Source: Minisyncoccota bacterium
GTDB taxonomy: Bacteria > Patescibacteriota > Minisyncoccia > Phycocordibacterales > UBA2100
Assembly (NCBI GenBank): GCA_031291875.1
Contig: JARLIE010000040.1
Coordinates: forward strand, 132,088 to 196,087
Direction: 5' to 3'
Length of the DNA: 64,000 nt
Each line of letters begins with the position of its first letter. Position 1 is the stretch's first letter. Position numbers and translations under genes: made by a program. Below the pieces are notes generated by a model, which saw nothing but the letters and a program-made list of their open reading frames with translations, searched no databases and was not told the DNA's origin. Below, piece after piece: positions 5,358 to 53,345 of the stretch.

Positions 5358-8300
5358 ATGAGTAAAGCATTAGCAACAAAGAAAGTTGCGGCTGCGCTCT
5401 TGGGCTTTGGAATGGTTCTTGCTTTCGCCACCACGGCGAGCGCACAGACCACTTCGTCAGCTTCGACGCTGTCGACGCTCCAAGCACAAGTTCAAGCGCT
5501 TCTCGCGCAAATCGCATCGCTCCAGGGCTCTGGTACATCCACGGGTTCCGGCGGCGCGTGCTTCACCTTCTCGGCGAATGAGCAAGTTGGCTCAAACGGC
5601 GGTCAGGTGATGTGGATCCAGGAGTTCCTCAACGGTCACGGCTTCCAAGTCGCGGCGACAGGTGCTGGTTCTCCGGGCAATGAAACGAGTCACTTTGGTC
5701 CGGCCACTAAGGCTGCGGTCATGAAGTTCCAGAGCTCGAACGGCATCTCGCCGGTCTCGGGTTACTGGGGACCTCTGAGCCGCGCTAAGGCCAATGCCAT
5801 CTGTGCCGGTTCTACGACTGGCACGGGTACAGGCACTGGTACTGGTACTGGCACGACTTCGGGAGCGGGTATCACCGTTACCGCAGGCGTCCAGCCGGCA
5901 AACTCGCTCGCTCCGGTTAACGCAAGCCGCGTTCCGTTCACGACGTTCACGCTATCCAACAACACTGGCAGCGCGGTAACGATCAACGGCATCACGGTTC
6001 AGCGCACGGGCCTCGCGAATGACAACGCCTTCGCTGGTGTTATTCTTCTCGACTCGAACGGTCTCCAATACGGCAACTCACAAACCTTCAACTCGAACCA
6101 CCAGGCGACGGTTGGCGGTACATTCACTCTCAATCCGGGTCAGTCAATGACTTACACGATTGCGGGTAATATGGAAACGATCGCGAACAGTAACTCTGGT
6201 CAGATCGCTTCTGTCTCGGTTGTCGGTGTCAATACTTCGGTTCCGGTCTCTGGCTCGCTCCCGATTACGGGCGCGCAACAGACGATCAACGAGTCGTTGA
6301 CGATTGGTACTGCATCTCTCAGCAACTCCGGTTACGACCCGAACGGTTACCGCTCGAATTCGATCGGTACAACGGGCCTTACGTTCTCCGCCCTCCGCAT
6401 CACTGCTGGATCGGCTGAAGACGAGAAGCTCTACTCGATCACGTGGAACCAGACTGGTTCTGCTGGTTCGCAGGACATTGGCAACCTCAAGACGGTTGTT
6501 AACGGCACGAGCTACCCGGTAACGGTTGACGCTTCTGGTAAATACTTCACTTCGCAATTCGCGGGAGGTATCTTGATCCCGAAGGGTCAGTCTGTTGATG
6601 CGTACATTCAGGGTGACCTCACTGGCTCTACTGCCGCAGGTCGCACTGTAGAGTTCGACGTCTACCGCGCTTCCGACATTTACGTCGTTGGTCAAACGTT
6701 CGGCTACGGCATCACGCCGAGCAGCCCGAACTTGACCGCATGTAGTGCAACTGGCACGATTGGTACGAACTGTCTCGACACTGCGTCGAGTCACGGATCG
6801 CACTACTCGTACAACTCGAACCCGCTCTTCCAGGGCTCGAGCATGTCGATTACAGCCGGTACGTTGTCGACGGTCTCAACTGCGAGCTCCGTTGCTCCGC
6901 AGAATATTGCGATCAATGTCCCGAATCAGATTCTCGGTGGATTCCAGACGAACTTCACTGGTGAACCTGTTACGGTCAACAGCGTCACAGTTAGTGTTGC
7001 GACCAGCTCCACAAACACCGACCAGCTCAAGAGCGTTACCTTGGTTGACTCCAATGGCAATGTTGTTGCTGGCCCGGTTGACGAGAATGTGAGCACTGGG
7101 AAAATCATTTTCAGTAGCTCAGTCACCTTCCCGGTTGGACCGATGACGTACACCATTAAGGGTACGGTTGGTTCCAACGCGGGTAACGGCGGCACCTACA
7201 TCTTGTCGACGAACCCAGGTACTCAGTGGTCGAGCGCTATCGGCCAGACCTCTGGTAACTACGTAACGCTCCCGAGCACGACCATCACCATGAGCACCAT
7301 GACGGTGCAGGCTGGTCAGCTCAACATCTCGGCTTCGGCTTCGCCGGCATCGTCGAACATCACGACGAATACCAACAACTACACGGTTGCGAACATCGTA
7401 CTCGATGCCTCGCAGTCGGGTGAGGACGTTCGCTTGAACGCACTCCCGATCGTTGTTAACGCGACGTCGACTTCGGGTGACCAGACTTCGGCAAACTTGC
7501 TTAAGTCGAATCTCACGAACTGTCAATTGTTCAACGGCAGCAATGCGCTCAACAGCCAATCGGTTGGTTCGAGCCAGTGGACCGTTCAGAACACGTCAGG
7601 CAGCATCTACGGTCTTGAAGCGAACTTCATCTTCACGAACTCGCTTACGGTTCCGAAAGGCACGACTGTTACACTTTCGCTCGTCTGCAACATTGGCGGT
7701 GGTCTCTTCCCTGCAGAAACCTTCAACGCTGGTGTCGCTTCGGGCTTCGCTCCTACAGTTACGGGCGCGACCTCGGGTAACACTCTTAGCGCAACTCCGA
7801 CCACGAGCTCCTCGGGTACGATGACCGTTGGTACGGCAAGCATGACTGCTTCCGTCCCGACCCCGCTCTCGTACGCGCTGGTCTCTGGTGGCACACAGAA
7901 CGTCACAGTTGGAACTTTCACGCTCCAGCCGACGACGGGCAATGTCAGCCTCCAGAACCTCGGACTTGCTCTTAACTCGAATTACGCTTCCAGCTCCGAC
8001 CTCGCCAACGGCGTCGTCACGATCTGGAACGGTTCGACGCAGATTGGTACGGCCAACTTCAGCGGCAAATCGCCGATTGGTCACTACTACATCGCGACGT
8101 CTACGATCACGAACTTCAATCTTCCGCAAAACATCCAGACCACTCTTACCCTCAAGGCGAACATTGCTGCGATTGGTATCGGTCAATCTGGCATGAGCGG
8201 TCATGAACTCAAGATCGGTCTCGCAGAAGCTCAGGGTACATCGGGCAATAGCTCGGTTGATACTGGCTACACCACATCGAACGTACCGTCCAACGGTATC

Positions 8301-8870
8301 GCGATGTTTGCGAGCTATCCGACGGTCGCTCTCACGAGCTACTTGCCGAGCAACGGTATCTCTGACGGTCGTTTGATCGCGTTCTCCATCACGGCGAACT
8401 CGGCAAACCCTGTTGGTATCTCGAAGCTCTCATTCAGCATCGCTTCTTCGAGCGCGGCTGTTACGTCTCCGTCCTTGTACGTGTACTCTGACTCCGGTTT
8501 CTCGCAGCCTGCGGGCGGCACGACCGGGGGTATTGGTGGTTACACGAACTACACGGCGGGCAATCCGGGTTCCGCAACGACGATCTTCACATCGCCGCTT
8601 GAGATCCCGGCTGGTACGACCGAGTACTTCCTCTTGAAGGGTACGGTCTCGAGCGTTGGCGGTGCTACCACCTACAACGTTGCGACCACTCTCTTGGGTG
8701 ATACTGGTGACCAGGCTCCGATTATGGTTGCGTCTTCGTCGGTCAGCACGAACTTCGTCTGGTCGCCGAACTCGACGACTACCTCGTCCGGTGCTGCACT
8801 TGATTGGACCAATGCGTACGGCGTCTCAGGATTGCCGTCAATCGGTCTCACTCAGAACCGCACTCAATAA
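5358..8870 (+). CDS. large secreted S/T-rich surface protein with N-terminal peptidoglycan-binding domain
   Basis: Start chosen at MSKALATKK (ATG 5358) with a purine-rich stretch (aggaaagg) upstream. Signal peptide VAAALLGFGMVLAFATTASA. A PG_binding_1-like segment (VMWIQEFLNGHGFQVAATG...TKAAVMKFQSSNGISPVSGYWGP), a (TG)n linker, then ~950 aa of beta-rich S/T/N/G-rich sequence. The ORF track's 5247 start adds a non-signal-like basic extension. Confidence 0.7.
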   Translation: MSKALATKKVAAALLGFGMVLAFATTASAQTTSSASTLSTLQAQVQALLAQIASLQGSGTSTGSGGACFTFSANEQVGSNGGQVMWIQEFLNGHGFQVAATGAGSPGNETSHFGPATKAAVMKFQSSNGISPVSGYWGPLSRAKANAICAGSTTGTGTGTGTGTGTTSGAGITVTAGVQPANSLAPVNASRVPFTTFTLSNNTGSAVTINGITVQRTGLANDNAFAGVILLDSNGLQYGNSQTFNSNHQATVGGTFTLNPGQSMTYTIAGNMETIANSNSGQIASVSVVGVNTSVPVSGSLPITGAQQTINESLTIGTASLSNSGYDPNGYRSNSIGTTGLTFSALRITAGSAEDEKLYSITWNQTGSAGSQDIGNLKTVVNGTSYPVTVDASGKYFTSQFAGGILIPKGQSVDAYIQGDLTGSTAAGRTVEFDVYRASDIYVVGQTFGYGITPSSPNLTACSATGTIGTNCLDTASSHGSHYSYNSNPLFQGSSMSITAGTLSTVSTASSVAPQNIAINVPNQILGGFQTNFTGEPVTVNSVTVSVATSSTNTDQLKSVTLVDSNGNVVAGPVDENVSTGKIIFSSSVTFPVGPMTYTIKGTVGSNAGNGGTYILSTNPGTQWSSAIGQTSGNYVTLPSTTITMSTMTVQAGQLNISASASPASSNITTNTNNYTVANIVLDASQSGEDVRLNALPIVVNATSTSGDQTSANLLKSNLTNCQLFNGSNALNSQSVGSSQWTVQNTSGSIYGLEANFIFTNSLTVPKGTTVTLSLVCNIGGGLFPAETFNAGVASGFAPTVTGATSGNTLSATPTTSSSGTMTVGTASMTASVPTPLSYALVSGGTQNVTVGTFTLQPTTGNVSLQNLGLALNSNYASSSDLANGVVTIWNGSTQIGTANFSGKSPIGHYYIATSTITNFNLPQNIQTTLTLKANIAAIGIGQSGMSGHELKIGLAEAQGTSGNSSVDTGYTTSNVPSNGIAMFASYPTVALTSYLPSNGISDGRLIAFSITANSANPVGISKLSFSIASSSAAVTSPSLYVYSDSGFSQPAGGTTGGIGGYTNYTAGNPGSATTIFTSPLEIPAGTTEYFLLKGTVSSVGGATTYNVATTLLGDTGDQAPIMVASSSVSTNFVWSPNSTTTSSGAALDWTNAYGVSGLPSIGLTQNRTQ
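5817..5855 (+). repeat. in-frame hexanucleotide tandem repeat (ACTGGY/ACGGGT)x6 encoding a (TG)n linker
   Basis: actggcacgggtacaggcactggtactggtactggcacg is read directly and translates to TGTGTGTGTGTGT inside the surface-protein gene. Confidence 0.8.
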
Positions 8871-11042: not shown

Positions 11043-11627
11043 ATGCATAAACTTTGGAAAGTACTGCGTTGGACAATTATCTTTGTCGCGCTCGTATACG
11101 CCGCGATGGTTATCTACGCCTACCCACATGTTCATCAAGAGCGTCTCGACCGCGAAGTGGTTGCGCAAATCGAAGCGCAAAAGATTACTCCCGATGACGT
11201 AGCTGGTGCGCATCTTGCGCCCACGCCGGATCCAAACGCAATTGATGCGACCGTCCAAGGAGTCGACGCCAATCAAAACGGCATCCGTGATGACGTCGAG
11301 CTCGCGATTTTCGCTAGGCACCCAACCTCAAGCGCGATCCGTGCCGCCGAGCTCCAGTACGCGATGGATCTCCAAACTCAACTGACACAAGTGACGGACA
11401 CGGCCACTTGGGCGGCAGCCGAAATACAGCGCGAGCGAGGCTTCGGGTGTCTGTACGATACTTCGCGCGGCGAGTATTCTCGCTTCGAAACAGAAACGGA
11501 CGCCTTGGTTATTAATACGAATCTGCGAAAAGAGAGATTCGATTGGATGCAGCAGTTCGGCACCTCTTATAAACTTTCATTCGGCCCCGATTGCGATGTG
11601 AGTTCGCAGCAGGGCTATGGCAACTAA
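11043..11627 (+). CDS. hypothetical membrane-anchored protein
   Basis: 194-aa ORF with an N-terminal TM helix (WTIIFVALVYAAMVIYAY) and no recognisable motif. Confidence 0.45.
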   Translation: MHKLWKVLRWTIIFVALVYAAMVIYAYPHVHQERLDREVVAQIEAQKITPDDVAGAHLAPTPDPNAIDATVQGVDANQNGIRDDVELAIFARHPTSSAIRAAELQYAMDLQTQLTQVTDTATWAAAEIQRERGFGCLYDTSRGEYSRFETETDALVINTNLRKERFDWMQQFGTSYKLSFGPDCDVSSQQGYGN

Positions 11628-14169
11628 ATTTCTTTTCTATTTTCTCTTCTTGTGGTGCGTGCCACTTATCGTTTTTGCATCATCGTGTTCTCCGGATTCG
11701 GCGACGGTCGTGTATATAAACGGCATTGAAACGACACAAAAAGAGGCGAGCGACGACATGGCGCTTTTGCGCAAAGACTTTCTGCAATACAGAGGCTCGC
11801 CGAACATCACCTTCTTGAATGGCTATAACCCTTCGCATCTCGGCGGTCTTGGAGACGCCATCGAATCTATTAGCCAGGCGATCAATTCACCGATCAGCAA
11901 TTACGATCTCTTCACGATTATCGCGCAACTTGCTTCGCAGGTACTTACTCGCAAAGTATTGCTTGTCGGTCATTCGCAAGGCGGCTTTTACGCGAACGAA
12001 ATCTACGACTATCTCGTCAAAAGCGGCACGCCGGCAAATTCGATAGGAGTGTACGAACTCGCAACTCCCGCTGATCATGTCGCGGGCAATGGTAGCTACC
12101 TCACGTCTTCAAATGATACGGTGATCAATTTTGTCAGAGGATCGCAAGCAGATTTACGATTGCCACAGGCGCTCCCTGCAAACGTGACCATTTTGGAACA
12201 AGCCAGCGACGCGAGCAACACCTGGTCGGGGCACATTCCGAGCGTGTATCTCAATGGTGCGGCTGCTCGGATAGCCGCCGATATAAAGCGAGCGCTTGGA
12301 GCACTTTCTGCGGACGGCGCCGGATCCGACAGTTGTATTGCTGCTCCGCAGCTTGGGTCTATATACGCTCTGCAAAAGAGCGCATTCGCTGTCGCCGATC
12401 CACTCGCTTCAAATATTGATGCCGCAATCCGTTCAACAGCTACCGCGATCAGTGAGGCAAACACGATCGGGAACGATGTCATACATACTGCTTTCAGCGA
12501 CGCATTCTTTGCGGTGATTCCAAGACCGACCGCACAAAACGCGGCGGGCGTGTTCGCTGTGGAGAAAGCGCTCTACGGCTCAAGTTTGAGTGTCGCTGAT
12601 TACGAGGCGCTTATAGCAGGCAAAGAGATTCCCGAAAATATTGATCCGCCCCCGACTCCGCAATCGAAAACGGTTCAGCCTGCAACGCCCATAGCTTCAC
12701 CGATACAAGCTCAACAGCAAAACAATCAGAACGAAAATCCTGCTCCAGCGACTCAACTCCCTCAATCACAAACTCAATCTATACTCCCGATTCCTGTGCC
12801 CGTGCCGATCACTGTCAGTCCCGGTTTTGGGGGAGGAGCTCCGGCACCGATGCGAACCGTACAAAGCCAAGGTTCATGGACTGCTCCGACAGCCGAAGAT
12901 TCTGGTCCACCGACTTCGACGACCTCGCAGCCGTCCGCCGCAACGACAACACTGCCGTTTGCGGTTACATCGCCGCTCGATCAGAGTATGTTTTCGACAT
13001 CGACCATTGCGTTTACAGGGACTACGACACCGCTTGCGACGATCTCCGCCAGTTTCGGAACGACAACTGTTTCTACCCGGGCAGATGCCGATGGAAGCTG
13101 GAGTATGTTGCTTGAGCTGCTCGCAGGCACCACGACGGTGTCATTCGGTGCCGCAGATACAGCAGGAGACACCACTGCAACCACGACGCGTTCGATCGTG
13201 GTCGCACTTGCTCAATCGACCACTACTATGACTGTTGCGACGACAACAGCTACATCGACCACGGTCGCGACCAACGAACCTGCAATCGATAATCCCTGCG
13301 GACAATCGCCATTAGCGACGAGCGGCTATTTCTTCAGTGGCGTGAAAGACGATCCTGAGTATCCAAGCGGCCTGCTTGAATACCACTTCAGAATCAATTC
13401 GGCATACGCGGACGGCCGCGCTTTCAAGATCACCTGGCAATACTTTGACGATCAATGCGAACAAAGCGCTCCCGAAAATTCTTCGACTCTACAGGTACAG
13501 CTGCCAACTGGCGTAACCGATTGGAGCGTTCGATTTTCCTCACCGACCCACTTCGAGATTTGGGATGATCAACATAACGCCATTGCCCTGGACGAAAATG
13601 GAAGCCCGATCGAGGAAGACATTCCCGCCCTGTCTAGCTACGAGAGTATTAAAATATCTGGAACTATAGGTGGCTCGGCGAGCACGCTGGATTCGCGCGT
13701 TGTCAAAATAAATGGGGCAGGGGAGCCGCCGTCGTTTCCGGATACGGCGATCATCCGCTCGGGCTGCACCAGCGGCTATGCGAGCGGCGTTCTCTTTGAT
13801 CCCGCGTATCAAAAATCCGAGTACGTCGGGCGGCTGCTCCGTATTCACTTGCGCCTGCGCTCGCCCTACAACAGCGGCCCGAGTTTCCCTTTGCAGGTGG
13901 TTGCGCTTGGAAGCGACTGTGGAACGCCGGTTCCCGACGCACCCACCAGCACCGTCGTCGTATCGCTCCCGGTATACATTCGGTACTACTCCTATCGAAT
14001 GGTTACGCCGACGCATTGGGTCCTATGGGACGATGAGAACGATATAGAGGCGTGCGCAGGATGCGAAGGCGACATTCCGGCCGATACGATCTATGTCGGA
14101 TTCTCTGCGACGGCTGAGCTCAGAGGGGACAATCAAATGTGGACGCCGTCTCTCTATCCGTCGCTCTAG
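11617..14169 (+). CDS. secreted alpha/beta-hydrolase (lipase-like GHSQGG) fused to S/T/P-rich linkers, Ig-like region and two copies of a novel C-terminal domain
   Basis: Signal/lipobox-like N-terminus (LIVFASSCSP). Nucleophile-elbow motif LLVGHSQGGFYANEIYDYL. Long Q/P/T/S-rich linkers. Two homologous ~100-aa domains (THFEIWDDQHNAIALDENGSPI vs THWVLWDDENDIEACAGCEGDI). Confidence 0.6.
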   Translation: MATKFLFYFLFLWCVPLIVFASSCSPDSATVVYINGIETTQKEASDDMALLRKDFLQYRGSPNITFLNGYNPSHLGGLGDAIESISQAINSPISNYDLFTIIAQLASQVLTRKVLLVGHSQGGFYANEIYDYLVKSGTPANSIGVYELATPADHVAGNGSYLTSSNDTVINFVRGSQADLRLPQALPANVTILEQASDASNTWSGHIPSVYLNGAAARIAADIKRALGALSADGAGSDSCIAAPQLGSIYALQKSAFAVADPLASNIDAAIRSTATAISEANTIGNDVIHTAFSDAFFAVIPRPTAQNAAGVFAVEKALYGSSLSVADYEALIAGKEIPENIDPPPTPQSKTVQPATPIASPIQAQQQNNQNENPAPATQLPQSQTQSILPIPVPVPITVSPGFGGGAPAPMRTVQSQGSWTAPTAEDSGPPTSTTSQPSAATTTLPFAVTSPLDQSMFSTSTIAFTGTTTPLATISASFGTTTVSTRADADGSWSMLLELLAGTTTVSFGAADTAGDTTATTTRSIVVALAQSTTTMTVATTTATSTTVATNEPAIDNPCGQSPLATSGYFFSGVKDDPEYPSGLLEYHFRINSAYADGRAFKITWQYFDDQCEQSAPENSSTLQVQLPTGVTDWSVRFSSPTHFEIWDDQHNAIALDENGSPIEEDIPALSSYESIKISGTIGGSASTLDSRVVKINGAGEPPSFPDTAIIRSGCTSGYASGVLFDPAYQKSEYVGRLLRIHLRLRSPYNSGPSFPLQVVALGSDCGTPVPDAPTSTVVVSLPVYIRYYSYRMVTPTHWVLWDDENDIEACAGCEGDIPADTIYVGFSATAELRGDNQMWTPSLYPSL

Positions 14170-18792: not shown

Positions 18793-19137
18793 CCGCAGCA
18801 CATATGGTGTTCGGAATGAGGGCGAAAAGGCGGCAACCGTAATGCGGGGGGAACCCCCACACCAAGGTGGCCGCGAAAGCGGCCTTTTTCACGCTTGAAA
18901 AAGCACGAAATCATATGTTGCTCGTTGAAAACTGAAGAGCGACACAAGAAAGAATCAAACGTTCCGTTTGGGTTATAAGTCTTTCCCGAACGGAATGCAG
19001 GAATCCGCCGTAAGGCGGGCAAAAAGAAAACATCAAGTCGCGTCTTCCTCTTGTAGGGAAGATGCGCAGTTCTCGTGAAAAAGCAGCGGTGTTTTTTCAC
19101 GAGACGTAATACGCGGTTCTCAGAATTCCTAGCGGGA

Positions 19138-22095
<2,958 letters not shown>

Positions 22096-22230
22096 CTCGA
22101 AAGGAATTGTGAGAGTCGCGTTAACGAATTGTTTTCTCTGTTTTGCCGGAATAGTGCACGCACTATTCTGCGCAAATATTTCTTGTGTCGCTCTTCGGTT
22201 TTCAGCGCAGCCGAAGTTCTTTGAATGTTT

Positions 22231-22342
22231 TGTGTTGGTGCTTCATCGGAGGGGTCACACCCGTTCTCTTTCCGAACACGGCAGTTAAGCCCTCTTGAGG
22301 CGATGGTAGTCGAAAGGCGAGAGTAGCTAGGCGCCAACACAA
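22231..22342 (+). rRNA. rrf: 5S ribosomal RNA
   Basis: Helix I pairs tgtgttggtgc with gcgccaacaca. Internal ccgaacacggcagttaagcc...gatggtagtcgaaaggcgagagtagctaggcgcc matches 5S loop C/helix IV-V conservation. Confidence 0.75.
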
Positions 22343-22404
22343 ACTATTCAAAGAATTCTCTCATTCCGTCATTTTATTCGGCAGGCAAACCTGCCGGCGG
22401 GGCA

Positions 22405-22463
22405 GTTAAGCCCTTCTGTGCTGATGGTAGTCGAAAGGCGAGAGTAGCTAGGCGCCGGGAAAA
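22405..22463 (+). repeat. direct duplicate of the 3' ~57 nt of 5S rRNA (5S fragment/pseudogene)
   Basis: gcagttaagccc.tct.gtgctgatggtagtcgaaaggcgagagtagctaggcgcc recurs ~65 nt after the complete 5S. The 5' half of 5S is missing from the second copy. Confidence 0.7.
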
Positions 22464-22465
22464 AG

Positions 22466-22948
22466 CTATTCCTCTGACTCAAGATTTATCTCGAGAGGAA
22501 TTCTGTCTACCTCAGTGAAGCCTTCTTCGCCAGCTTCTTTTATTAGAACTACAATCGTGTACTCCCCGCTATCGTCAACGGGCAAAGGAGAGAACTTACT
22601 TCGTATGCGAATACTTTTAATACCCTTTTGAATCCCAAAATTATTCGGAGGCAACTCTGCGATAGTATTGCCCTTTGGATTTACAAATTCATATTTAATC
22701 TCGAAAGCTACCGGGTCATCTATTTTTTTTGAAAATCGAGATATTATCTCGAATTCGAACGGAAATGCGTAGCCGTTTGCATTCTCGAGTCTTTTTTGTT
22801 CAAGCATTTCTTTGGTAATTTGAACCGTGAATTTCTCGATCAGATTGTTCAGGCTTAGGTTGTTTGTATCCGCACTCAATACTGAAGAGCTGCAGAGTAC
22901 GGAAAAAAGATGCCTGAGGTTTTTTGTACCGATTTCTTTAAAATTCAT
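22466..22948 (-). CDS. hypothetical protein, third gene of the toxin-antitoxin-like operon
   Basis: ATG overlaps the antitoxin stop as ATGA (translational coupling). 160 aa, AT-rich codons, no recognisable motif. Confidence 0.5.
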   Translation of the reverse strand: MNFKEIGTKNLRHLFSVLCSSSVLSADTNNLSLNNLIEKFTVQITKEMLEQKRLENANGYAFPFEFEIISRFSKKIDDPVAFEIKYEFVNPKGNTIAELPPNNFGIQKGIKSIRIRSKFSPLPVDDSGEYTIVVLIKEAGEEGFTEVDRIPLEINLESEE

Positions 22949-23382
22949 ACGCGAATGTAACTGTAACCCGTTATTGTTCCAAGCCTTTCCTTCGGGGACT
23001 CAGTATTTGCATCTGAAGATGCACTTTTGATCGACAGATCGTTTCGTTGAATAAAACTTGGAATCAATTTCTCGGAAACTTCCTGATCATTTATTGCTGT
23101 AAAGAAATTCGGATTTCCAAAACGCACTTCAAGATAGGTTTTAAAATGGTCAGCGATCTTCTTTAGTGTAGTTAAGTTCGGTAACTGAGCTCCGTTTTCC
23201 AATCGAGAAATCCCAGATTGTTTCGTGCCAATTGCTTCAGCGAGTTGCAGTTGTGTAAGATTCCTCTCAACTCTATTTCGTTCTATTTCACGACCTATCT
23301 GATAAGCAAGGTCTTGTTTAATCTCCAAATCAATGTTTGGGTTTTTTTCACGTATCTTAGTTTTGTAGGTCTTTAGGTCCAT
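22945..23382 (-). CDS. higA: XRE-family HTH antitoxin (HigA-like) with ~70-aa C-terminal extension
   Basis: HTH LTQLQLAEAIGTKQSGISRLENGAQLPNLTTLKKIADHF. Start taken at MDLKTY (ATG 23382) inside the 3' end of the toxin gene. The ORF track's upstream start at 23445 would overlap the toxin by 88 nt. Confidence 0.7.
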   Translation of the reverse strand: MDLKTYKTKIREKNPNIDLEIKQDLAYQIGREIERNRVERNLTQLQLAEAIGTKQSGISRLENGAQLPNLTTLKKIADHFKTYLEVRFGNPNFFTAINDQEVSEKLIPSFIQRNDLSIKSASSDANTESPKERLGTITGYSYIRV

Positions 23383-23743
23383 AGTTTTCAGGTATATTCT
23401 TAATTCTCTCTCGAGCAGATTTGATATGCGTTTTTGGAATATCACCGATTTTCTTTTTCACGAACCCATGTACAAGAATAATTTTGTTTCCGCGAAGACA
23501 TCCTATCAATCGGATTTTCTTTCCCTTATGTTCGATACGAAGATATAGGAGTCCATCTTGAGGGAAACGAATTTTCTCTTTTCGGAACAGTTCGTCTAAA
23601 TATCGTCCATCGAAGCCCTCTTCGAGCATTTCAGCAATTTCGAGCGCTGCAATTTCTCCGAGTGAGTCAAGGAATTCAGCTACATGACATCTTCCGCCGC
23701 CCGATTCATCTTCCCAGAACTCAATGCGGACGGTTTGTTCCAT
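23357..23743 (-). CDS. higB: Gp49-like (DUF891) HigB/RelE-superfamily toxin
   Basis: LYLRIEHKGKKIRLIGCLRGNKIILVHGFVKKKIGDIPKTHIKSARERIKNI matches the Gp49/HigB signature (...yRi.y....iillhgF.KKtqktP..ei..A..R...). Gene order toxin then HTH antitoxin is typical of higBA. Confidence 0.7.
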   Translation of the reverse strand: MEQTVRIEFWEDESGGGRCHVAEFLDSLGEIAALEIAEMLEEGFDGRYLDELFRKEKIRFPQDGLLYLRIEHKGKKIRLIGCLRGNKIILVHGFVKKKIGDIPKTHIKSARERIKNIPENYGPKDLQN

Positions 23744-35854: not shown

Positions 35855-36206
35855 TGGCCGACCATCGCTCCTGATGGCCTTTTCTTTGGAATCTTTGCGG
35901 TTCCAAAAGAATCGCTCAAGCATCATCTCGATGCAGAGCCTTTCAACCGAAACGTCGGCGGAGCATGGTTGAACTTTGAAAACTGAATAAAGAAGATTGT
36001 ACGCATCAAGATCGAAGCAATTCGATCGTTGGTAAGTAAACACACAAAAAAACAGTAAGTGGAAGGAAAGTATGGTATCCGAACGGATAGTTCGGATAGC
36101 ACATTCTTTTGTTCCGTCCATCCTAAGAAAGAGTAAGAAACAAATTCTAGAAGCCTCTCGTTGCCGATTCATTCGGCCGACGCTTCGAAGGTAAAATTAC
36201 TTTTAC

Positions 36207-37657
<1,451 letters not shown>

Positions 37658-37938
37658 AAAAATTGACCTTTCTGCCTTTAGTGGTGGATCGAGTCGAGTC
37701 GATTCGTGTGTCTCGATCGAGCACATGAGGGAAATGGCATTCATCCCAAAATGATGCCTGACAACTCGCAAAGACGAGTGTTTGGACGGAACAAAAGAGT
37801 GTAAATCCAAATCCAAGTACTGTGTGTGTTACAAAACAAAATAGGCCGCCCAAAGCGGTCTCTTTTGCGTTGGGCCGAACGATGCTAGGCTGAATGAGGT
37901 CACGCTCTCACCGCATAAGAGGGCAGGAGGGAACGATC

Positions 37939-48750: not shown

Positions 48751-49419
48751 ATGGGTACTCTATCTATAGTCGCAACGCCGATAGGCAACCTCGAGGACAT
48801 CACCCTGCGCGCGCTGCGCACACTAAAGGAGTGCGACGTTATCTATGCCGAAGACACCCGCGTGATCGCAAAGCTCCTTGCGCGTTACGAGATCAAAAAG
48901 CCCCTGCAGCGACTCGACGCGGCGACCGAAAGCGCGAAAGTGAATGAAGTAATCGAACGGCTCGAAGCGGGCGAGAAAGTCGTCTTCGTTTCCGACGCAG
49001 GCACTCCGGGAATTTCCGACCCGGGCGCGCGCCTCGTCGCAAACATTCGCGAAGCGTTGCCGGAAGCGAAGATAGAAGCGATACCGGGCGCCTCTGCGCT
49101 CGCAGCTGCAATCTCAATTGCCGGACTCTCAACCGACGAATTTTTGTTCTTCGGGTTTTTGCCGCACAAAAAGGGACGGCAGACATCGCTCAAATATATT
49201 GCGTCGAGCCTTGTGCCGGTTGTGCTCTATGAATCGCCGCACCGCATCGAAAAACTGCTCGAAGAGCTTTCCGCCGCCGGCATCGAAAAGGTGGGTGTCG
49301 CGCGCGAGCTCACAAAAATGCACGAAGAGTTTCTTTTGGGCGAGCCGCGCGCTATTGCAAAGGATTTAACGGCCCGAAAAGCGGTGCGGGGGGAGTTCGT
49401 GGTGATTGTCTATAAGTAG
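48751..49419 (+). CDS. rsmI: 16S rRNA (cytidine1402-2'-O)-methyltransferase
   Basis: MGTLSIVATPIGNLEDITLRALRTLKECDVIYAEDTRV (tetrapyrrole-methylase fold, RsmI N-terminus). 222 aa. Confidence 0.85.
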   Translation: MGTLSIVATPIGNLEDITLRALRTLKECDVIYAEDTRVIAKLLARYEIKKPLQRLDAATESAKVNEVIERLEAGEKVVFVSDAGTPGISDPGARLVANIREALPEAKIEAIPGASALAAAISIAGLSTDEFLFFGFLPHKKGRQTSLKYIASSLVPVVLYESPHRIEKLLEELSAAGIEKVGVARELTKMHEEFLLGEPRAIAKDLTARKAVRGEFVVIVYK

Positions 49420-49454
49420 TGGTTGCCGGTACTGTGGCAGGGTATACTTACAGT

Positions 49455-49700
49455 ATGACCCTCGATACGGTCATTATGCTCTTCGGCGCATTCGTCGCTG
49501 TTTTGCCGTTTCTGCAATTTCCGCAAGATTGGACGGACTTTTTTGCGTTCGTCGCCGGCATCATCATCATCGGACTCGGTATCGCCGTCAGACGCCGCGG
49601 TTTGCGCCACAATTTGGCAGCCGACCAAGCGCAGCTGTTTACAGAAGCCGGTCCCACCGAAACAACCGAAGAAGCTAGTACCAACCTCGGAGAAGAATAA
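49455..49700 (+). CDS. small membrane protein
   Basis: MTLDTVIMLFGAFVAVLPFLQFPQDWTDFFAFVAGIIIIGLGIAV has two hydrophobic helices. Start at internal ATG 49455; the ORF track's 49419 start overlaps the rsmI stop. Confidence 0.4.
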   Translation: MTLDTVIMLFGAFVAVLPFLQFPQDWTDFFAFVAGIIIIGLGIAVRRRGLRHNLAADQAQLFTEAGPTETTEEASTNLGEE

Positions 49701-49805
49701 TCGCAAGGTTCCCTGAACTACAGGGATGCCCTGGAGGGCATGTTTGCTATACTTATATAAGTTTCCTGCAGATCGCACGTTCGATCTCGGGCAAACTCTA
49801 TTTTT

Positions 49806-51674
49806 ATGTCTTCCGATATCGAACAAAGAGACGACGACAGGCGCGTTACCTATTTCGCCTCCACGCACACGCGAGGGAAACGCGAGATGTTCGGCATTCG
49901 CGCGGTGGATCGCGGCAAGCATATTTATGTGATCGGTAAAACCGGTATGGGTAAATCGACCATGCTTGAAAACATGGCGATCCAGGATATTCAAAACGGC
50001 GAGGGAATCGCGTTTATCGATCCGCACGGCTCGACCGCGGAAAAGCTTCTCGATTTCGTTCCGCACGAGCGTCTCAAGGACGTCGTGTACTTCGCTCCGT
50101 TCGACACCGATTATCCGATCGGCTTCAACGTGATGGAAGACGTCGGGTACGACAAACGGCACCTGGTCGTCTCCGGCCTCATGGGCGCGCTCAAGCGCAT
50201 TTGGGTCGACGCGTGGTCGGCTCGTATGGAATACATTTTGCAAAACACCTTGCTTGCGCTCCTCGAGTATCCGGATTCCACATTACTTGACGTGAACCGT
50301 ATGCTCACCAACAAGACATTCCGCACCGCCGTAGTTGAAAAGATTACCGACCCGATCGTGAAAGCCTTTTGGACCGAAGAGTTCGCGAACTTTACCGATA
50401 CCTATACGCGTGAAGCGACGCCGGCGATCCAGAACAAGATCGGTCAGTTCGTGGCGAACCCATTGATCCGCAATATCATCGGGCAGGCGAAATCGTCGTT
50501 CGATCTGCGCAAGATCATGGATGAGAAAAAGATTTTTATCGTGAACCTCTCGAAGGGTCGCATGGGCGAGACCAACGCTTCGCTTCTTGGCTCCATGCTC
50601 ACGGTCAAGATTTATCTTGCGGCAATGTCGCGCGCCGACGAATCCGCCGGACGCCTTGCGCGCCTGCCGCGCTTCTATTTCTATGTCGACGAATTCCAGT
50701 CGATGATGAACGAGGCGTTCGCCGACATCCTCTCCGAATCGCGCAAATATAAGCTCGCGCTTACGCTCGCCAACCAATATATAGAACAGATGGAAGAAAA
50801 AGTGCGCGACGCCGTCTTCGGCAACGTCGGTACGCTCATTTGTTTCCGCGTCGGCCCGTTCGACGCGGAAGTGTTAAAGACCGTATTCGAACCGACCTTC
50901 GAAGCCGAAGATCTTATCGAGCTCGGGCTCGGCCAGATTTACCTAACCTTGATGATCGATGGCGTCGGTTCGCCGCCGTTTTCCGCCGAGACCATACCGC
51001 CGATCGAAGCGCCGCGGATTTCCTATCGCAACGACGTAGTGACATTTTCTCGCGCCACCTTCGGAAGGACTCGTGCCGAAGTCGAGGCAGCAATCGGCAA
51101 AAAACAGCTGGAATTCATTCCACCGCCGAGGGAGGAGAAGCGCAAACGCCCCCCGATCTTGGGAGGTGGTTTTACCCCGCGCCCAAGCAGCAACTCGCAA
51201 GGAGCGCCCCGTGAGGCGGCACCCACAGCACCCGCAAGTGCGCCTATCGCAAAACCAAATCCCGACGAACAGCGCGGCGCGCTTCGAGCAGCCATTCAAT
51301 CCGCCCGTACCGAAACTTCCGCCTCCGCCCCGCCCGCCCGTTCGCCACTTGAGATATTGCGGGAAAAGGGAGGCGCTCAAACTCACGCAGGTGGGCATGC
51401 TCCCGCACCCGCGCGTCCGAACGTACACAGGGCGCCGCAGCCAACACAGCAAACAGCGCCGGCAAATGTCCCGCCTCGGCAGATGGCGAGGCCAGCGCAC
51501 CATCCCCAGCCCCAACCCAAGCAAACGCCGCGTCCGGTTGCCGCGCCGACGCCCGCTCCGGCACCGGCGCCCGCTGCGGAACCTGTTGCCGCCGCACCAA
51601 GTGCTCACGACGGAGAAGTCTCTCCGGATGTTCTCGCCCGACTTCTCAAGGATGATCGCGACAATCAGCTGTAA
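49806..51674 (+). CDS. FtsK/HerA/TraD-VirD4-superfamily P-loop ATPase (T4SS coupling-protein-like) with ~200-aa Pro/Ala-rich disordered C-terminal tail
   Basis: Walker A VIGKTGMGKST, Walker B FYFYVDEFQS, sensor-like LTLANQ. No N-terminal TM helices. The C-terminal third is P/A/Q-rich low complexity (PTPAPAPAPAAEPVAAAP). Confidence 0.6.
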   Translation: MSSDIEQRDDDRRVTYFASTHTRGKREMFGIRAVDRGKHIYVIGKTGMGKSTMLENMAIQDIQNGEGIAFIDPHGSTAEKLLDFVPHERLKDVVYFAPFDTDYPIGFNVMEDVGYDKRHLVVSGLMGALKRIWVDAWSARMEYILQNTLLALLEYPDSTLLDVNRMLTNKTFRTAVVEKITDPIVKAFWTEEFANFTDTYTREATPAIQNKIGQFVANPLIRNIIGQAKSSFDLRKIMDEKKIFIVNLSKGRMGETNASLLGSMLTVKIYLAAMSRADESAGRLARLPRFYFYVDEFQSMMNEAFADILSESRKYKLALTLANQYIEQMEEKVRDAVFGNVGTLICFRVGPFDAEVLKTVFEPTFEAEDLIELGLGQIYLTLMIDGVGSPPFSAETIPPIEAPRISYRNDVVTFSRATFGRTRAEVEAAIGKKQLEFIPPPREEKRKRPPILGGGFTPRPSSNSQGAPREAAPTAPASAPIAKPNPDEQRGALRAAIQSARTETSASAPPARSPLEILREKGGAQTHAGGHAPAPARPNVHRAPQPTQQTAPANVPPRQMARPAHHPQPQPKQTPRPVAAPTPAPAPAPAAEPVAAAPSAHDGEVSPDVLARLLKDDRDNQL

Positions 51675-51764
51675 TTGCTGACCCGCAGGTAGGCGCGTTT
51701 TCGTTCAGATTTTTTTGAACGGGCCTTTAGATTTATATGATAGCCGGTTCGTATACTGAGCCGG

Positions 51765-53345
51765 ATGAAACGGGGTCATGTTGCGCACTATTCAATCGCG
51801 GCCTGCTTACTGCTCTCGCCGGGTTTTGCGTCGGCGCAAGTCGTCATCAATGAGGTCATGTACAACCCGCAGGGGAGCGACGCGGGCCGGGAATGGATCG
51901 AGTTGTACAACCAGGGCGCCGCGGACGTCACGATGCTCGGCGGCAGCGGCAAGGGTTCGTGGCGCATCAATGACGGATCAAATCACACGTTTACGGATCC
52001 GGGGGGCGGCACCGGACGCGGTTCTCTTACAATTCCCGCTGGAGGATATCTCATGATCGCGAGCGATCCGAATGAATTTATCTCCGGCGAATATGCGGGA
52101 GGATCGTATTCCGTCGTGAAGTCATCTCTGAGCCTCAGTAATAACGGAGCAGGTATCACACTCCTCGACGGCTCGGGAGCGACGCTAGATACTGTCGCAT
52201 ATTCGCCGACGCAGGGAGGCACTGACGACGGTTCAAGTTTGCAACGACAAACGGATGGCTCATGGATCGCGGCGGCGCCGACGCCGGGAACGACAAATTC
52301 CTCTACGCGATTCGTCGCTCCTATCAGGGCAGATCCCGCCGCAGCTTCGCAGACGCAATCGAGCTCGACCGACTCAAGTGCAGCGATCACGCAGCCTGCG
52401 ATATCATCCTATGTTCCACCGCCCGCGCCGAGCTTGTATGCGGATGCCGGAGGCGACAAAACGGTCATCGTCGGCGCCGATGTCGAGTTCGACGCTAGCG
52501 CGTACGATAAATCTCAGACGTTGCTCGATTCGAGTGTGGTGCGCTATATGTGGAACTTTGGTGACGGTGCTACCGCAGAAGGAGAAGCGGTTCTCCATCA
52601 TTTCGAGTATCCGGGAACCTACGCGGTCACGCTTGAGATCGCGAACAACAAAAATGCGGCGGGAGCACAAATTACCGTAACGGCTAATCCGGCCGCACTT
52701 TCGTTCTCGCTGCTGCAGGATGGCGGCGTACAAATTCAAAATCTCGACGGGCGCGATATCGATCTTTCTCAATGGATCGTGCACGAAAGCGATTCGCCGT
52801 ATGCCGCGCAGTTGATCATCCCGCAAAGTTCCAAAATACTTTCCGGCTCGTCGATGCAAATTTCCCCGCAGACGCTCGGTTTCCGCGCTTCCTCCTCCAC
52901 GATGCTCGAATATCCCAACGGCTTATTCGCGCTCGCCATGGGAACTTCATCAATAGCTTCTGCGGAAATTAGCAGCGAGCAGGTATCTCAAGTGCAAAAG
53001 AGTATTGTGCCGATACCTTCTGTTAGTGCCAAGTCAAAAGCGACCCACAGCCGCGAAAAATCACCAAAATCAGCCGTTTCGATTCCGAGTGTCACGCAAG
53101 AATCGGCTGAGGATTCAGGAAATACAGACGAGCAGATCGCGACGGCGTCTGATCCAGTCATCGACGCCGTTCAAACGGATGCAACCGAGACTGTTTTGCA
53201 AACGGCTTCGGCTGCCTCCGCAAACTCAAGCTATCTTTGGTGGACCGGCATCATCGCGATCGCGCTCGCTGCTGGCGCTGCGCTTGCGGCAGCCGGTTAC
53301 TACAAAAAGGGCGAATGGGATATCGTTGAAGATACGTCGGAATAA
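51765..53345 (+). CDS. secreted lamin-tail-domain (LTD) plus PKD-domain protein with C-terminal TM anchor
   Basis: Signal peptide. LTD signature VVINEVMYNPQGSDAGREWIELYNQG. PKD-like YMWNFGDGATAEGEAVLHHFEYPGTYAVTLEIANN. C-terminal WWTGIIAIALAAGAALAAAGYY. Confidence 0.65.
   Translation: MKRGHVAHYSIAACLLLSPGFASAQVVINEVMYNPQGSDAGREWIELYNQGAADVTMLGGSGKGSWRINDGSNHTFTDPGGGTGRGSLTIPAGGYLMIASDPNEFISGEYAGGSYSVVKSSLSLSNNGAGITLLDGSGATLDTVAYSPTQGGTDDGSSLQRQTDGSWIAAAPTPGTTNSSTRFVAPIRADPAAASQTQSSSTDSSAAITQPAISSYVPPPAPSLYADAGGDKTVIVGADVEFDASAYDKSQTLLDSSVVRYMWNFGDGATAEGEAVLHHFEYPGTYAVTLEIANNKNAAGAQITVTANPAALSFSLLQDGGVQIQNLDGRDIDLSQWIVHESDSPYAAQLIIPQSSKILSGSSMQISPQTLGFRASSSTMLEYPNGLFALAMGTSSIASAEISSEQVSQVQKSIVPIPSVSAKSKATHSREKSPKSAVSIPSVTQESAEDSGNTDEQIATASDPVIDAVQTDATETVLQTASAASANSSYLWWTGIIAIALAAGAALAAAGYYKKGEWDIVEDTSE

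Follow-up and report, generated by a model that had tools for sequence, protein, structure and literature searches.

The window analysed here is a 64-kb stretch of a 220-kb contig, and all features described below are on its + strand. A gene at 49806..51674 encodes a soluble P-loop ATPase of 622 aa belonging to the VirD4/TrwB family (T4CP-like), as judged from the ORF, Pfam, Foldseek and hydropathy, and the gene following it at 51765..53345 encodes a surface receptor of 526 aa that was predicted (ORF, Pfam and an AF2 model with a mean pLDDT of 80) to be Sec-exported and C-tail-anchored. The intergenic spacer of 90 nt (51675..51764) contains a hairpin at about 51700-51723, a terminator-like match with 3 G-C pairs only, and has a predicted fold of -26.9 kcal/mol (z -2.3). 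Both ORFs are genuine genes and not chance occurrences, the ATPase having more than 8000 homologues and the surface protein 209. Upstream, at 49419..49700 (probable true start, ATG at 49455), two hydrophobic segments mark a small 2-TM protein, named tm93, a candidate membrane anchor whose membership in the module is uncertain.

In the ATPase, the Walker A motif (GKTGMGKST, aa 44-52, 49935..49961) was unchanged across 55 homologues, and the Walker B motif (FYFYVDEF, aa 290-297, 50673..50696) aligned with the TrwB Walker B region in an HMM alignment; an all-alpha helical insertion lies between the two. HMM alignment to TrwB (1gl6/1e9r) also revealed an R-K...Q motif, SRKYKLALTLANQ (aa 312-324, 50739..50777), which pairs with TrwB GRKAGLRVVAGLQ, the arginine-finger/sensor region of HerA-FtsK-type ATPases, and in which R313, K314 and Q324 were invariant in the 55 homologues. 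Three Pfam models were passed, namely TrwB_AAD_bind (score 35.9, cut-off 20.5), T4SS-DNA_transf (26.5, cut-off 20.1) and TraG-D_C (23.6, cut-off 22), and the only significant Foldseek matches were DotL (3.8e-6) and Cagbeta (1.2e-5), with an identity of about 12-15% to the solved T4CPs; the predicted model was confident in part only (mean pLDDT 63). FtsK_SpoIIIE and DUF87/HerA scored 12.8 and 19.5, below the curated Pfam cut-offs of 24 and 23.2, respectively. No TM helix was found in the protein, the top 19-residue Kyte-Doolittle window being 1.29 and located within the globular domain. The first-pass annotation had described a TM-less TraD/VirD4-like ATPase with these Walker motifs, and the Pfam thresholds, the fold, the hydropathy and the exact coordinates agree with it. 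Its broader wording, an FtsK/HerA/T4SS-coupling-protein-like organisation, held for the coupling-protein part, whereas the FtsK/HerA part fails because both profiles stayed under the cut-off; an unrelated AAA family is contradicted by the T4CP models. As read from its sequence, the protein is an 'orphan' member of the VirD4/TrwB family, whose motors ordinarily supply bacterial conjugation machines with DNA, and it has lost the N-terminal membrane domain. This short form has a sister long form, PHROG 5156-like, that consists of an N-terminal TM, a PF26449 domain and the same ATPase.

The C-terminal tail of the ATPase (aa 441-622, 51126..51671) is Pro/Ala-rich (P 36, A 36, R 17, Q 12) and basic (net charge +8), and composition, conservation and a pLDDT of <50 apart from three short helices indicate that it is disordered. 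In the alignment of 120 homologues, which is gap-rich and weakly conserved in the rest of the tail, two conserved islands were located, motif 1 RGALRAAIQSAR (51273..51308; consensus R-x-[AS]-L-[RK]-x-A-I; predicted helix 486-501) and motif 2 RSPLEILREK (51339..51368; consensus R-S-P-x-[DE]-[IV]-L-R-[EQ]-K; predicted helix 514-521). A third conserved motif, GEVSPDVLARLL (51612..51647; predicted helix 607-615), precedes the acidic end and is a class I peptide confined to short forms, being present in 0 of the 25 long-form tails examined. The tail had been taken for a P/A/Q-rich disordered stretch of about 200 aa; the disorder was borne out, but the actual size is 182 aa, and the three short motifs mean that the tail is not featureless. 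The tail peptides probably bind another conserved partner or regulate the motor. In T4CPs, too, the C-terminal extension is variable and has a short docking peptide at its end, docking being putative in the present case; the C-terminus of TraD, for instance, binds TraM.

The receptor begins with a signal peptide (aa 1-24, ending GFASA|Q, 51765..51836; helix 6-16) recognised by sequence and hydropathy, after which come a lamin-tail domain (LTD, at aa 22-146, 51828..52202; Pfam LTD, 73.6 bits) and a PKD domain (aa 226-306, 52440..52682; PKD_4, 60 bits; Foldseek match to the ColG PKD with 32% identity). A third beta-sandwich domain (aa 307-400, 52683..52964), with strands at 312-391 and pLDDT >90, was LTD-like by jackhmmer cross-matches to LTDs. 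It leads into a Ser/Ala-rich stalk (aa 401-489, 52965..53231), disordered by composition and pLDDT <50, and a C-terminal TM helix (aa 490-513, 53232..53303) indicated by hydropathy and a modelled helix at 489-515 with pLDDT 86-88. The 13 residues after the TM anchor form a cytoplasmic tail, KKGEWDIVEDTSE (53304..53342), in which a basic cluster precedes a conserved acidic-aromatic peptide, EWDIVEE, the arrangement being kept across orthologues; conservation of this peptide implies a cytoplasmic partner for the receptor. Pfam and hydropathy thus agree with the earlier view of the neighbour as a secreted LTD plus PKD protein with a C-terminal TM anchor. At 11 of 59 orthologous receptor positions the LTD was swapped for a ComEA-type HhH (HHH_3) DNA-binding domain, so that the general architecture is LTD or ComEA-like HhH, PKD, LTD-like domain, Ser-rich stalk, TM and cytoplasmic peptide. 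Both the LTDs (median pI 4.2) and the HhH domains (4.7) are acidic, and Foldseek matched the ectodomain to generic Ig/PKD/S-layer/adhesin arrays only; the acidity and the generic fold were counted against a reading in terms of DNA, as was the inability of a single-pass receptor to form a channel. No backing was found for the proposal that ties LTD proteins of CPR to DNA uptake or host interaction, none of the ten top-ranked papers listed joining 'lamin tail domain' with CPR terms.

Adjacency of the two genes was conserved across relatives, about 80% of the loci having a receptor gene downstream; among the genes downstream of the ATPase (n=59), 42 were of the LTD type and 11 of the HhH type. 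Of the 35 ORFs within the fetched flanks (up to 10 kb) that combine a TM with the acidic-aromatic C-terminus, 34 were directly after the ATPase. Reciprocally, the ATPase was upstream of 6 of 7 distant receptor homologues, the spacing in 5 of these paired loci being overlaps of 11-26 nt or gaps of 1-52 nt. It is conceivable, but quite unlikely, that this adjacency is meaningless and that two independently useful genes have been kept together by synteny in a small genome that rearranges slowly: synteny extends over the entire region, 7 of the 59 loci keep the ATPase with its C-terminal peptide and no receptor at all, and a structured 90-nt spacer separates the genes in the window. However, the receptor start overlaps or almost touches the ATPase stop in 4 of 7 looked-up relatives, pairing persists even where receptor identity has fallen to about 30% and where the neighbourhood is otherwise dissimilar (L161), the sole unpaired distant homologue has neither TM nor cytoplasmic tail, and the conserved cytoplasmic peptide itself calls for a partner in the cytoplasm. 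Four further loci have a receptor without the cytoplasmic tail and retain the ATPase with its C-terminal peptide; together with the receptor-less loci, they indicate that the motor is not strictly dependent on the receptor. The class of ATPase C-terminal peptide and that of receptor tail co-vary across lineages, a co-variation confounded by phylogeny.

The genomic surroundings bear on whether the ATPase serves a T4SS. A link to an actual T4SS was not borne out, as no VirB4, VirB6 or pilin genes were found within the 64-kb window, and in the flanks (up to 10 kb) of 80 related loci the gene clusters recurring at 6 loci or more were, where annotated, of envelope or housekeeping function throughout, with no T4SS gene among them; a few had no annotation. 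Near the ATPase locus there were also no relaxase, pilus or competence genes, and no comEC or other channel gene. T4CP homologues in Patescibacteria are already known: Quinonero-Coronel et al. (2025; PMC12102498) counted 5,713 VirD4-type homologues in 2,918 of 3,035 genomes, 148 of them near virB4, against VirB4 in 2,417 genomes, and suggested exaptation. The window's ATPase is of the same protein class, but in the accessible part of that report the soluble short form is not split from the TM+PF26449 long form, and the tail peptides, receptor pairing, LTD/HhH swap, cytoplasmic peptide and two distinct conserved neighbourhoods are not described. Somewhat unlikely, in our judgement, is that the ATPase, a member of the T4CP family, acts as coupling protein of a chromosomal Patescibacterial T4SS, delivering or receiving substrates, with VirB4/VirB3/VirB6/VirB2-like genes elsewhere, often near dnaA, and the LTD protein either a neighbour with no connection to it or an adhesin associated with the T4SS. 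According to the same part of that report, T4CP genes are often distant from virB4 and T4SS occur in 80% of Patescibacteria genomes (PMC12102498), and a T4SS may sit elsewhere in the genome, the window covering 64 kb of the 220-kb contig. Nevertheless, the ATPase has no N-terminal TMD, its two-way conserved pairing is with the receptor and with no T4SS gene, homologues exceed VirB4 in genome number, and in S. epibionticum the t4cp homologue is non-essential whereas the T4SS is essential (PMC12102498).

Solved and profiled T4CPs (PF10412, PF02534, PF12696; 1E9R TrwB, 6SZ9 DotL, 8DOL Cagbeta) share with the ATPase the P-loop NBD, Walker A/B, RK..Q and the all-alpha insertion. They differ in that the window's protein lacks the TMD and nearby T4SS/relaxase genes, is paired with a surface receptor, and is the product of a chromosomal core gene with about 84% identity, not mobile-element cargo. 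The median identity of the ATPase domain was 84%, as compared with 62 for MurC, 56 for MurD, 65 for RsmI and 60 for the epimerase in the same genomes; the motor is extremely conserved and the receptor fast-evolving. At least 551 species carry the gene, its chromosomal position being fixed within a syntenic region, and the module is a conserved chromosomal one of Paceibacteria-type Patescibacteria (Kaiserbacteria and relatives), which belong to the ultra-small CPR bacteria. A mobile-element remnant or an anti-phage defence component, such as a MADS-like mad8 ATPase, is therefore largely refuted and very improbable: the PADLOC mad8 (59.9 bits) and PHROG 5156 (199 bits) matches, and nearest plasmid relatives lying among recombinases or CHAT-domain genes, are set against a mad8 profile that is generic because it derives from HHpred/PDB hit alignments, the absence of other mad genes nearby, a search of viral contigs in which no relative was found, a composition that is not atypical, and conservation beyond that of the Mur ligases.

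The gene order at the locus is Mur ligases, RsmI, tm93, DUF4015 hydrolase, YkuD+S11 peptidase, ATPase, receptor, epimerase and GT4s, with Glu racemase and many GT4s also in the neighbourhood, whose functions are peptidoglycan and glycan synthesis, not DNA. These neighbours, the likeness of the ectodomain to S-layer, PKD and adhesin arrays and the acidic LTDs would suit a cell-envelope module without a DNA role, in which the target of the ATPase is the tail-anchored surface protein or some other constituent of the envelope; it might, for instance, display, turn over or extract an Ig-like adhesin or S-layer-associated protein for host/particle attachment, or serve in its signalling. T4CPs, moreover, also take protein substrates through C-terminal signals. 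Such a role is unlikely, however, given that 11 of 59 loci have a dedicated DNA-binding HhH module at the tip of the receptor, that the motor is extremely conserved relative to the receptor, and that the long form is conserved beside topA (topoisomerase I). The long form has an ATPase domain 45-50% identical to that of the short form and also a disordered C-terminal tail, but it has a membrane anchor of its own together with a domain of about 350 aa, is found with topA and a sigma-70-like gene, often in tandem copies, and has another C-terminal peptide, no LTD/HhH receptor and no tm93.

Of 52 short-form loci, 49 had a tm93-like ORF upstream on the same strand, and no long-form locus had one, the long forms having their own TM. 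Between this ORF and the ATPase most relatives have one or two cell-wall genes, and the association may therefore reflect mere rsmI synteny. The small 2-TM protein TraI of pIP501 is a proposed membrane anchor of the T4CP TraJ (PMC12857230), and the window similarly encodes a 2-TM protein upstream, on the same strand, of a TM-less T4CP-family ATPase; the likeness is one of topology and gene position, tm93 is mostly separated from the ATPase by cell-wall genes, and the conjugation context is lacking.

Monoderm competence relies on ComEA, a membrane-anchored HhH receptor, the ComEC channel and ComFA, a cytoplasmic DEAD-box ATPase. An extracellular anchored HHH_3 module (11 of 59 receptors) with a cytoplasmic ATPase represents an equal division of labour, but the window's receptor is anchored C-terminally, has a conserved cytoplasmic peptide and carries an LTD instead of HhH, its ATPase is of the T4CP type and not a DEAD-box ComFA, and comEC is absent nearby. 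LTD or duplicate-HhH accessory domains, sometimes with PKD, also alternate in secreted nucleases (ExeM/NucH, DNaseI-family; PMC6085458, PMC4486849), where both were judged analogous DNA binders (PMC4486849) and where the LTD of ExeM was dispensable for DNA degradation in vivo (PMC6085458); the window's receptor differs in having no nuclease domain.

We infer, with a probability of roughly 0.4, that the ATPase and the receptor form a module in which a translocase recruited to the membrane is coupled to a receptor at the surface, probably for DNA and outside conjugation. The ATPase would assemble as a hexameric translocase, like its family, and could be recruited to the inner membrane face by tm93, as proposed for pIP501 TraI-TraJ, or, alternatively or jointly, by docking of the EWDIVEE-type cytoplasmic peptide of the receptor. 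Such docking of C-terminal peptides is known from other secretion ATPases of the HerA/FtsK superfamily. The distal domain of the receptor would capture an external ligand, most likely DNA, and the motor might drive or process the polymer as it comes in, at a channel whose gene lies elsewhere, either ComEC or a Patescibacterial VirB6-type channel; with capture and motor so arranged, the module would serve DNA/nucleotide acquisition and not conjugation. An alternative nucleotide-acquisition route in Patescibacteria is being looked for, and since no conjugation machine is nearby and the receptor domain can be swapped for a DNA-binding one, the two proteins may offer a new way of handling external DNA. 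The pairing had initially been put forward as a candidate DNA-transport or surface module; the surface pairing stands, and DNA transport is what we infer. The swap from LTD to ComEA-type HhH at the same gene position lends indirect support to a link with DNA, and the place of the long form by topoisomerase I was also counted toward it.

Translation of the ORF at 49806-51674 (+) gave a protein of 622 aa, in which Walker A (GKTGMGKST) and Walker B (FYFYVDEF) were located at residues 44-52 and 290-297, respectively, and hydropathy analysis detected no transmembrane (TM) helix (maximum 19-residue Kyte-Doolittle mean, 1.29), as described in the first-pass annotation. Three Pfam families of type IV coupling proteins (T4CPs) matched this ATPase over their curated cut-offs (score/cut-off): PF10412 TrwB_AAD_bind (35.9/20.5), PF02534 T4SS-DNA_transf (26.5/20.1) and PF12696 TraG-D_C (23.6/22); the TraD and CD1115 VirD4-like matches from NCBIfam were sub-threshold only. 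Since a profile search against PDB sequences gave only a marginal match to TrwB (E 0.045), in which Walker A, Walker B and the RK..Q motif all line up, the ATPase was classified by Pfam and by its Foldseek matches. The AlphaFold2 model (mean pLDDT 63; good at about residues 50-300 and 400-440, poor at 314-393) contained a helical insertion of high pLDDT between the Walker A and Walker B strands (about aa 115-240); the all-alpha domain inserted in the NBD and the overall T4CP fold were both found in this model, residues 314-393 being poorly modelled. With Foldseek, the only matches at E<1e-3 were DotL (6SZ9, 3.8e-6) and Cagbeta (8DOL, 1.2e-5), and the best HerA structure had an E of 0.22. The accompanying description of the protein as FtsK/HerA-like did not hold, and either identity was rejected, because both profiles scored below their curated cut-offs (PF01580 FtsK/SpoIIIE, 12.8 bits vs 24; PF01935 DUF87/HerA, 19.5 bits vs 23.2); the window does encode a true FtsK, with 4TM, alpha and gamma domains, separately at 1516-3756 (-). 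The N-terminal TM domain that is a hallmark of T4CPs was absent, Walker A being reached already at residue 44. By sequence and fold, the ATPase is a VirD4-family protein, as had been proposed, without the N-terminal membrane domain and the genomic partners of that family. The family assignment was already known, and no description of the anatomy and partnerships of the ATPase was found in the literature searched and read.

The ATPase had been said to end in a disordered P/A/Q-rich tail of about 200 aa; the composition agreed (P 36, A 36, R 17 and Q 12; net charge +8), the length being 182 aa (residues 441-622). Alignment of 120 homologues revealed three conserved islands in this variable, gap-rich tail, at aa 490-501 (R-x-[AS]-L-[RK]-x-A-I), aa 512-521 (R-S-P-x-[DE]-[IV]-L-R-[EQ]-K) and, C-terminally, aa 603-614 (G-E-[VI]-S-x-x-x-L-x-R-[VL]-[LI], followed by acidic residues), each predicted by AlphaFold as a short isolated helix. 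The C-terminal peptide class E-[VI]-[PS]-E-D-x-L-[RK]-x-[IVL]-L was restricted to this short, soluble form and its orthologues, being found in 0 of 25 long forms (sister ATPases described below); an alternative end, [KP]-G-[EQ]-x-[IV]-x-F, occurred in long forms and in a subset of short forms.

A word-index search returned at least 8000 homologues of the ATPase, the best 120 of which were 65-88% identical, and the best carry the names Kaiserbacteria or Paceibacterota. Exhaustive search of 1.84 billion cluster representatives gave 20,730 clusters at E<=1e-3 and 5,622 at E<=1e-30, and a close relative was encoded in at least 551 GTDB species genomes. Mean column conservation across residues 21-400 was 0.87-0.99 in the 120 homologues, and median identity in the same genomes was 84% for the ATPase domain vs 62% for MurC, 56% for MurD, 65% for RsmI and 60% for the epimerase. 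The ATPase behaves as a core gene, not as mobile-element cargo, and GC content near its locus was unremarkable. An origin as plasmid or ICE cargo was rejected, the best plasmid relatives being orphan genes of at most 40.7% identity on non-mobilizable replicons, and so was a phage origin, as the matching PHROG 5156 has no assigned function and no relative was found in the viral contig collection. The PADLOC profile mad8 (PDLC04140) matched the ATPase with 59.9 bits; a role in MADS defence was rejected because this profile is generic (built from HHpred/PDB alignments) and no other mad genes were nearby, the neighbours being Mur, RsmI, receptor and epimerase genes, not a methyltransferase/kinase mad operon. 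Being built in this way, the mad8 profile likely gives false defence calls on T4CP-like ATPases. It was also noticed that the nearest relatives outside Patescibacteria (41% and 33% identity) were orphan T4CP-like ATPases without T4SS genes, namely a stand-alone gene of 395 aa among recombinases on a Sulfitobacter plasmid (NZ_CP081110.1, 99994-101181) and one between CHAT-domain proteins on a Bradyrhizobium plasmid (150073-152199); these two suggest that VirD4-like ATPases independent of a T4SS form a wider clade.

The DNA of the window is chromosomal, from a CPR bacterium of Kaiserbacteria/Paceibacteria type, and contains 23S-5S and 16S rRNA genes, two tRNAs, FtsK, FtsW/RodA, MurA, MurC, MurD, RsmI, ribonucleotide reductase, sugar transferases and glycosyltransferases. 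Its 64 kb contained no gene for VirB4, VirB6, a pilin, a relaxase, ComEC or an integrase, nor was there a T4SS gene among the annotated clusters recurring in at least 6 of 80 related short-form loci (flanks up to 10 kb), which were cell-envelope or housekeeping genes, a few further clusters having no annotation. The T4SS connection suggested in the first-pass annotation is thus unsupported locally. Quinonero-Coronel et al. (2025, PMC12102498) report VirB4 in 2,417 Patescibacteria genomes and 5,713 VirD4-type homologues in 2,918 of 3,035 genomes, only 148 of these homologues lying near virB4; in S. epibionticum, by the same study, the t4cp homologue was non-essential and the T4SS genes essential. 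A remote role of the ATPase with a chromosomal T4SS is a minority explanation that still deserves weight. According to that study, exaptation of Patescibacterial t4cp homologues 'cannot be ruled out', and both it and PMC11665869 treat the role of T4SS-related genes in Patescibacteria as an open question.

The gene downstream of the ATPase, at 51765-53345 (+), encodes a surface protein of 526 aa, hereafter the receptor. Pfam and hydropathy bore out its earlier description as a secreted protein with a lamin-tail domain (LTD), a PKD domain and a C-terminal TM: LTD (PF00932; 73.6/34.3, aa 22-146) and PKD_4 (PF18911/PF00801 family; 60/27, aa 226-306) were matched, the N-terminus was signal-peptide-like, and a TM helix was located near the C-terminus. 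The AlphaFold model (mean pLDDT 80) consisted of a signal helix, three beta-sandwich domains (26-170, 224-308 and 312-391), all with pLDDT >90, and a stalk of about 90 disordered, Ser/Ala-rich residues preceding the TM helix (489-515). Its structural neighbours were generic Ig/PKD arrays, including the Sap S-layer protein, the PKD domains of ColG (32% identity) and various other receptors and adhesins. No LPXTG or PEP motif of a sortase or exosortase sorting signal preceded the TM helix (...SANSSYLWWTGII...). Unlike such signals, the C-terminus (cytoplasmic tail, KKGEWDIVEDTSE) carries, in orthologues, a basic cluster after the TM helix and then a conserved acidic-aromatic peptide, which is EW[DN]I[VI]EE in lineages of Kaiserbacteria type and E[FY]x[IL][EI][ED] in those of Adlerbacteria type. 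The aromatic-x-aliphatic core was present in 30 of 35 receptor tails (median 17 aa), and 34 of 35 ORFs that combined a TM helix with an acidic-aromatic C-terminus, in loci with flanks of up to 10 kb, were the gene following the ATPase. Because a single-pass surface protein retains a conserved cytoplasmic peptide, a cytoplasmic partner is implied, and the adjacent ATPase is the obvious candidate.

Where the sequence extended 1.8 kb or more past the ATPase (63 loci), a same-strand ORF began near its stop codon in 61. Pfam analysis of 59 downstream genes revealed LTD in 42, HHH_3 (ComEA-type) in 11, an epimerase in 7 (loci without the surface gene) and an IS200-type transposase in 2; by local domain mapping, the receptor architectures were LTD-PKD-LTD-like (19), LTD only (16), HhH-PKD-LTD-like (11) and other-PKD-LTD-like (3). 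In a reciprocal test seeded with the fast-evolving receptor, which yielded 209 homologues from 64% down to 29% identity, a T4CP-like ATPase lay upstream of the receptor in 6 of 7 distant cases. Four of these pairs had the ATPase stop within 1 nt of the receptor start or overlapped by 11-26 nt, and the remaining pairs had a 52-nt gap or an intervening AAA_18 gene of 200 aa. The sole unpaired homologue had neither the C-terminal TM nor the cytoplasmic peptide and adjoined FtsK and a PG-binding protein. The adjacency, for which the annotation had asked conservation across relatives, is therefore kept, and that it reflects mere synteny without function, as the loci with an epimerase in place of the surface gene might suggest, appears improbable. 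The unpaired homologue (5001-6173 of its locus) is a paralogous LTD-PKD protein, and its setting, with FtsK and a PG_binding_1 protein, resembles the start of the window (FtsK, 1516-3756; PG_binding_1 protein, 5247-8870). IS200/Y1-type transposase genes were observed just downstream of the ATPase in two loci, L008 (10293-11000) and L049 (11863-12552); in the latter an LTD gene comes after the transposase, and the junction thus tolerates insertion there. The spacer between ATPase and receptor in the window (51675-51764) had a predicted fold more stable than those of shuffled controls (-26.9 kcal/mol, z -2.3), with an A/U-rich hairpin at about 51700-51723; as four of the seven distant relatives show overlap or near-abutment instead, the receptor may be regulated separately in this genome.

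The ATPase peptide classes and the receptor tail classes were strongly associated by lineage, an association confounded by shared phylogeny: class I occurred with EWxI in 25 loci and with E[FY]x[IL] in 6, and class II with E[FY]x[IL] in 10 and with EWxI in 0. Class III comprised 4 cases with no receptor tail, and the ATPase C-terminal peptide therefore persists without it. Direct pairing of this peptide with the receptor tail is weakened as a candidate, since class III keeps the peptide where the receptor tail or the receptor is absent.

Gene order in the 80 short-form loci was MurD/MurC (sometimes with MurI), RsmI, a small protein with two TM segments (tm93), a DUF4015 glycosyl-hydrolase-like or unassigned secreted protein, sometimes a YkuD+Peptidase_S11 fusion, the ATPase, the receptor, an epimerase and several GT4 glycosyltransferases. 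In the window, tm93 lies at 49419-49700 (+), and the 105 nt between it and the ATPase (49701-49805) lack the hydrolase-like (or unassigned secreted) and YkuD+Peptidase_S11 genes that usually intervene; the same compact arrangement was seen in few loci (L029, L061 and L067). The annotated GTG start of tm93 overlaps the rsmI stop by 1 nt; as homologues begin with MTLD, the true start is probably the ATG at 49455. An RRRG cluster comes after the two hydrophobic segments of tm93, so that both of its termini would be cytoplasmic. In a profile search, 49 of 52 short-form loci had a same-strand tm93-like ORF ahead of the ATPase (median distance to the ATPase, 1365 nt; directly adjacent in 8), as against 0 of 80 long-form loci. 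The arrangement recalls TraI-TraJ of pIP501, in which a small 2-TM protein is proposed to tether the T4CP to the membrane, although in the loci compared here other genes usually intervene. From this arrangement tm93 could be a detached membrane anchor for the ATPase, but simple synteny with rsmI could also account for it.

Many representatives at 45-50% identity belong to a long form, in which the ATPase is preceded by an N-terminal TM helix and then by a further domain of some 350 aa; this domain bears the precomputed label PF26449 and had no match in the Pfam profile scan. Named examples were mostly from Saccharimonadia, Microgenomates and Berkelbacteria. In 80 metagenomic loci, the conserved position of the long ATPase was behind topoisomerase I and then a gene for a sigma-70-like HTH protein; two tandem copies were often present with genes of about 175 aa and 345 aa between them (e.g. 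locus L142: 6343-8688, 8889-9941 and the long ATPase after 10001). None of these 80 loci had an LTD, HhH or PKD neighbour of the long form, which indicates that receptor pairing is specific to the soluble form. A detached TM+PF26449 domain encoded as a separate gene was sought and rejected, none being present in the window or the 80 short-form loci. The long-form neighbourhood stands as a separate, uncharacterised gene cluster that is widely conserved in Patescibacteria.

Several lines of evidence bear on whether the substrate is DNA. In favour, 11 of 59 genes in the receptor position have a ComEA-type HhH where the LTD would otherwise stand; the window receptor itself differs from a ComEA-type DNA receptor in carrying an LTD and not HHH_3 (PF12836). 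LTD and duplicate HhH alternate likewise in secreted nucleases of the DNaseI family, where both were considered DNA binders 'analogous in function' (PMC4486849), and this parallel supports a DNA link for the receptor. Also in favour, the sister long form is conserved beside topoisomerase I. The N-terminal LTD of ExeM contributes to activity in vitro but is dispensable in vivo (PMC6085458). Also against DNA, the receptor LTDs are acidic (median pI 4.2), as are the HhH domains there (4.7), so that simple electrostatic DNA binding by the LTD is unsupported. Foldseek gave only generic Ig/PKD matches for the receptor ectodomain and none specific to DNA-related structures. The connection of LTD proteins with DNA uptake that the annotation mentions for CPR genomes did not turn up in the top-ranked papers. 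The acidic domains and the generic ectodomain would suit an envelope or adhesin role independent of DNA, which the HhH replacement and the topoisomerase I neighbourhood make rather improbable.

The most likely reading, to which we assign a probability of about 0.4, is that a membrane-recruited T4CP-derived translocase works with a tail-anchored surface receptor, most plausibly on external DNA and apart from conjugation; DNA transport by the pair is what we infer. The receptor would capture extracellular or host DNA via its LTD or ComEA-HhH tip, the soluble, putatively hexameric motor would be recruited to the membrane, and the cytoplasmic peptide or the small 2-TM anchor might unite the two. 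According to PMC11665869 and PMC12102498, nucleotide synthesis is absent in Patescibacteria and competence was dispensable for growth in the one genetically studied species; an alternative route of nucleotide acquisition is sought by the field because of this dispensability. That the DNA-capturing receptor and the soluble motor form such a route, as a T4SS-independent, trans-envelope device of Paceibacteria-type bacteria, is a speculative and unlikely extension. The near-universal T4CP homologue of Patescibacteria now resolves into two forms with different conserved partners, and the soluble form has defined tail peptides and partners that can be tested, i.e. the LTD/HhH-tipped receptor, its candidate cytoplasmic docking peptide and the candidate 2-TM anchor. 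The vague idea of exaptation for other functions is thereby opened to binding, DNA-interaction and knockout experiments, and the DNA-uptake reading, if true, would represent a new way to build a DNA-import apparatus out of conjugation parts.

Elsewhere in the window, the rRNA genes are unlinked, 23S-5S (19133-22339) lying about 14 kb upstream of 16S (36202-37661) on the same strand, with genes for FtsW, a sugar transferase, an epimerase and others between 5S and 16S. Directly after the 5S rRNA gene, an AT-rich island (about 22400-23500, -; GC 0.43 vs about 0.54 elsewhere) harbours an XRE-type HTH_3 gene (22945-23445) together with a gene of 160 aa that matched no family (22466-22948). The island may be a short insert of foreign DNA, or its genes a toxin-antitoxin-like pair. 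Two very large, secreted Thr/Ser-rich proteins, one of 1207 aa with PG_binding_1 as its only domain (5247-8870, +) and one of 850 aa without Pfam match (11617-14169, +), are probably cell-surface proteins.
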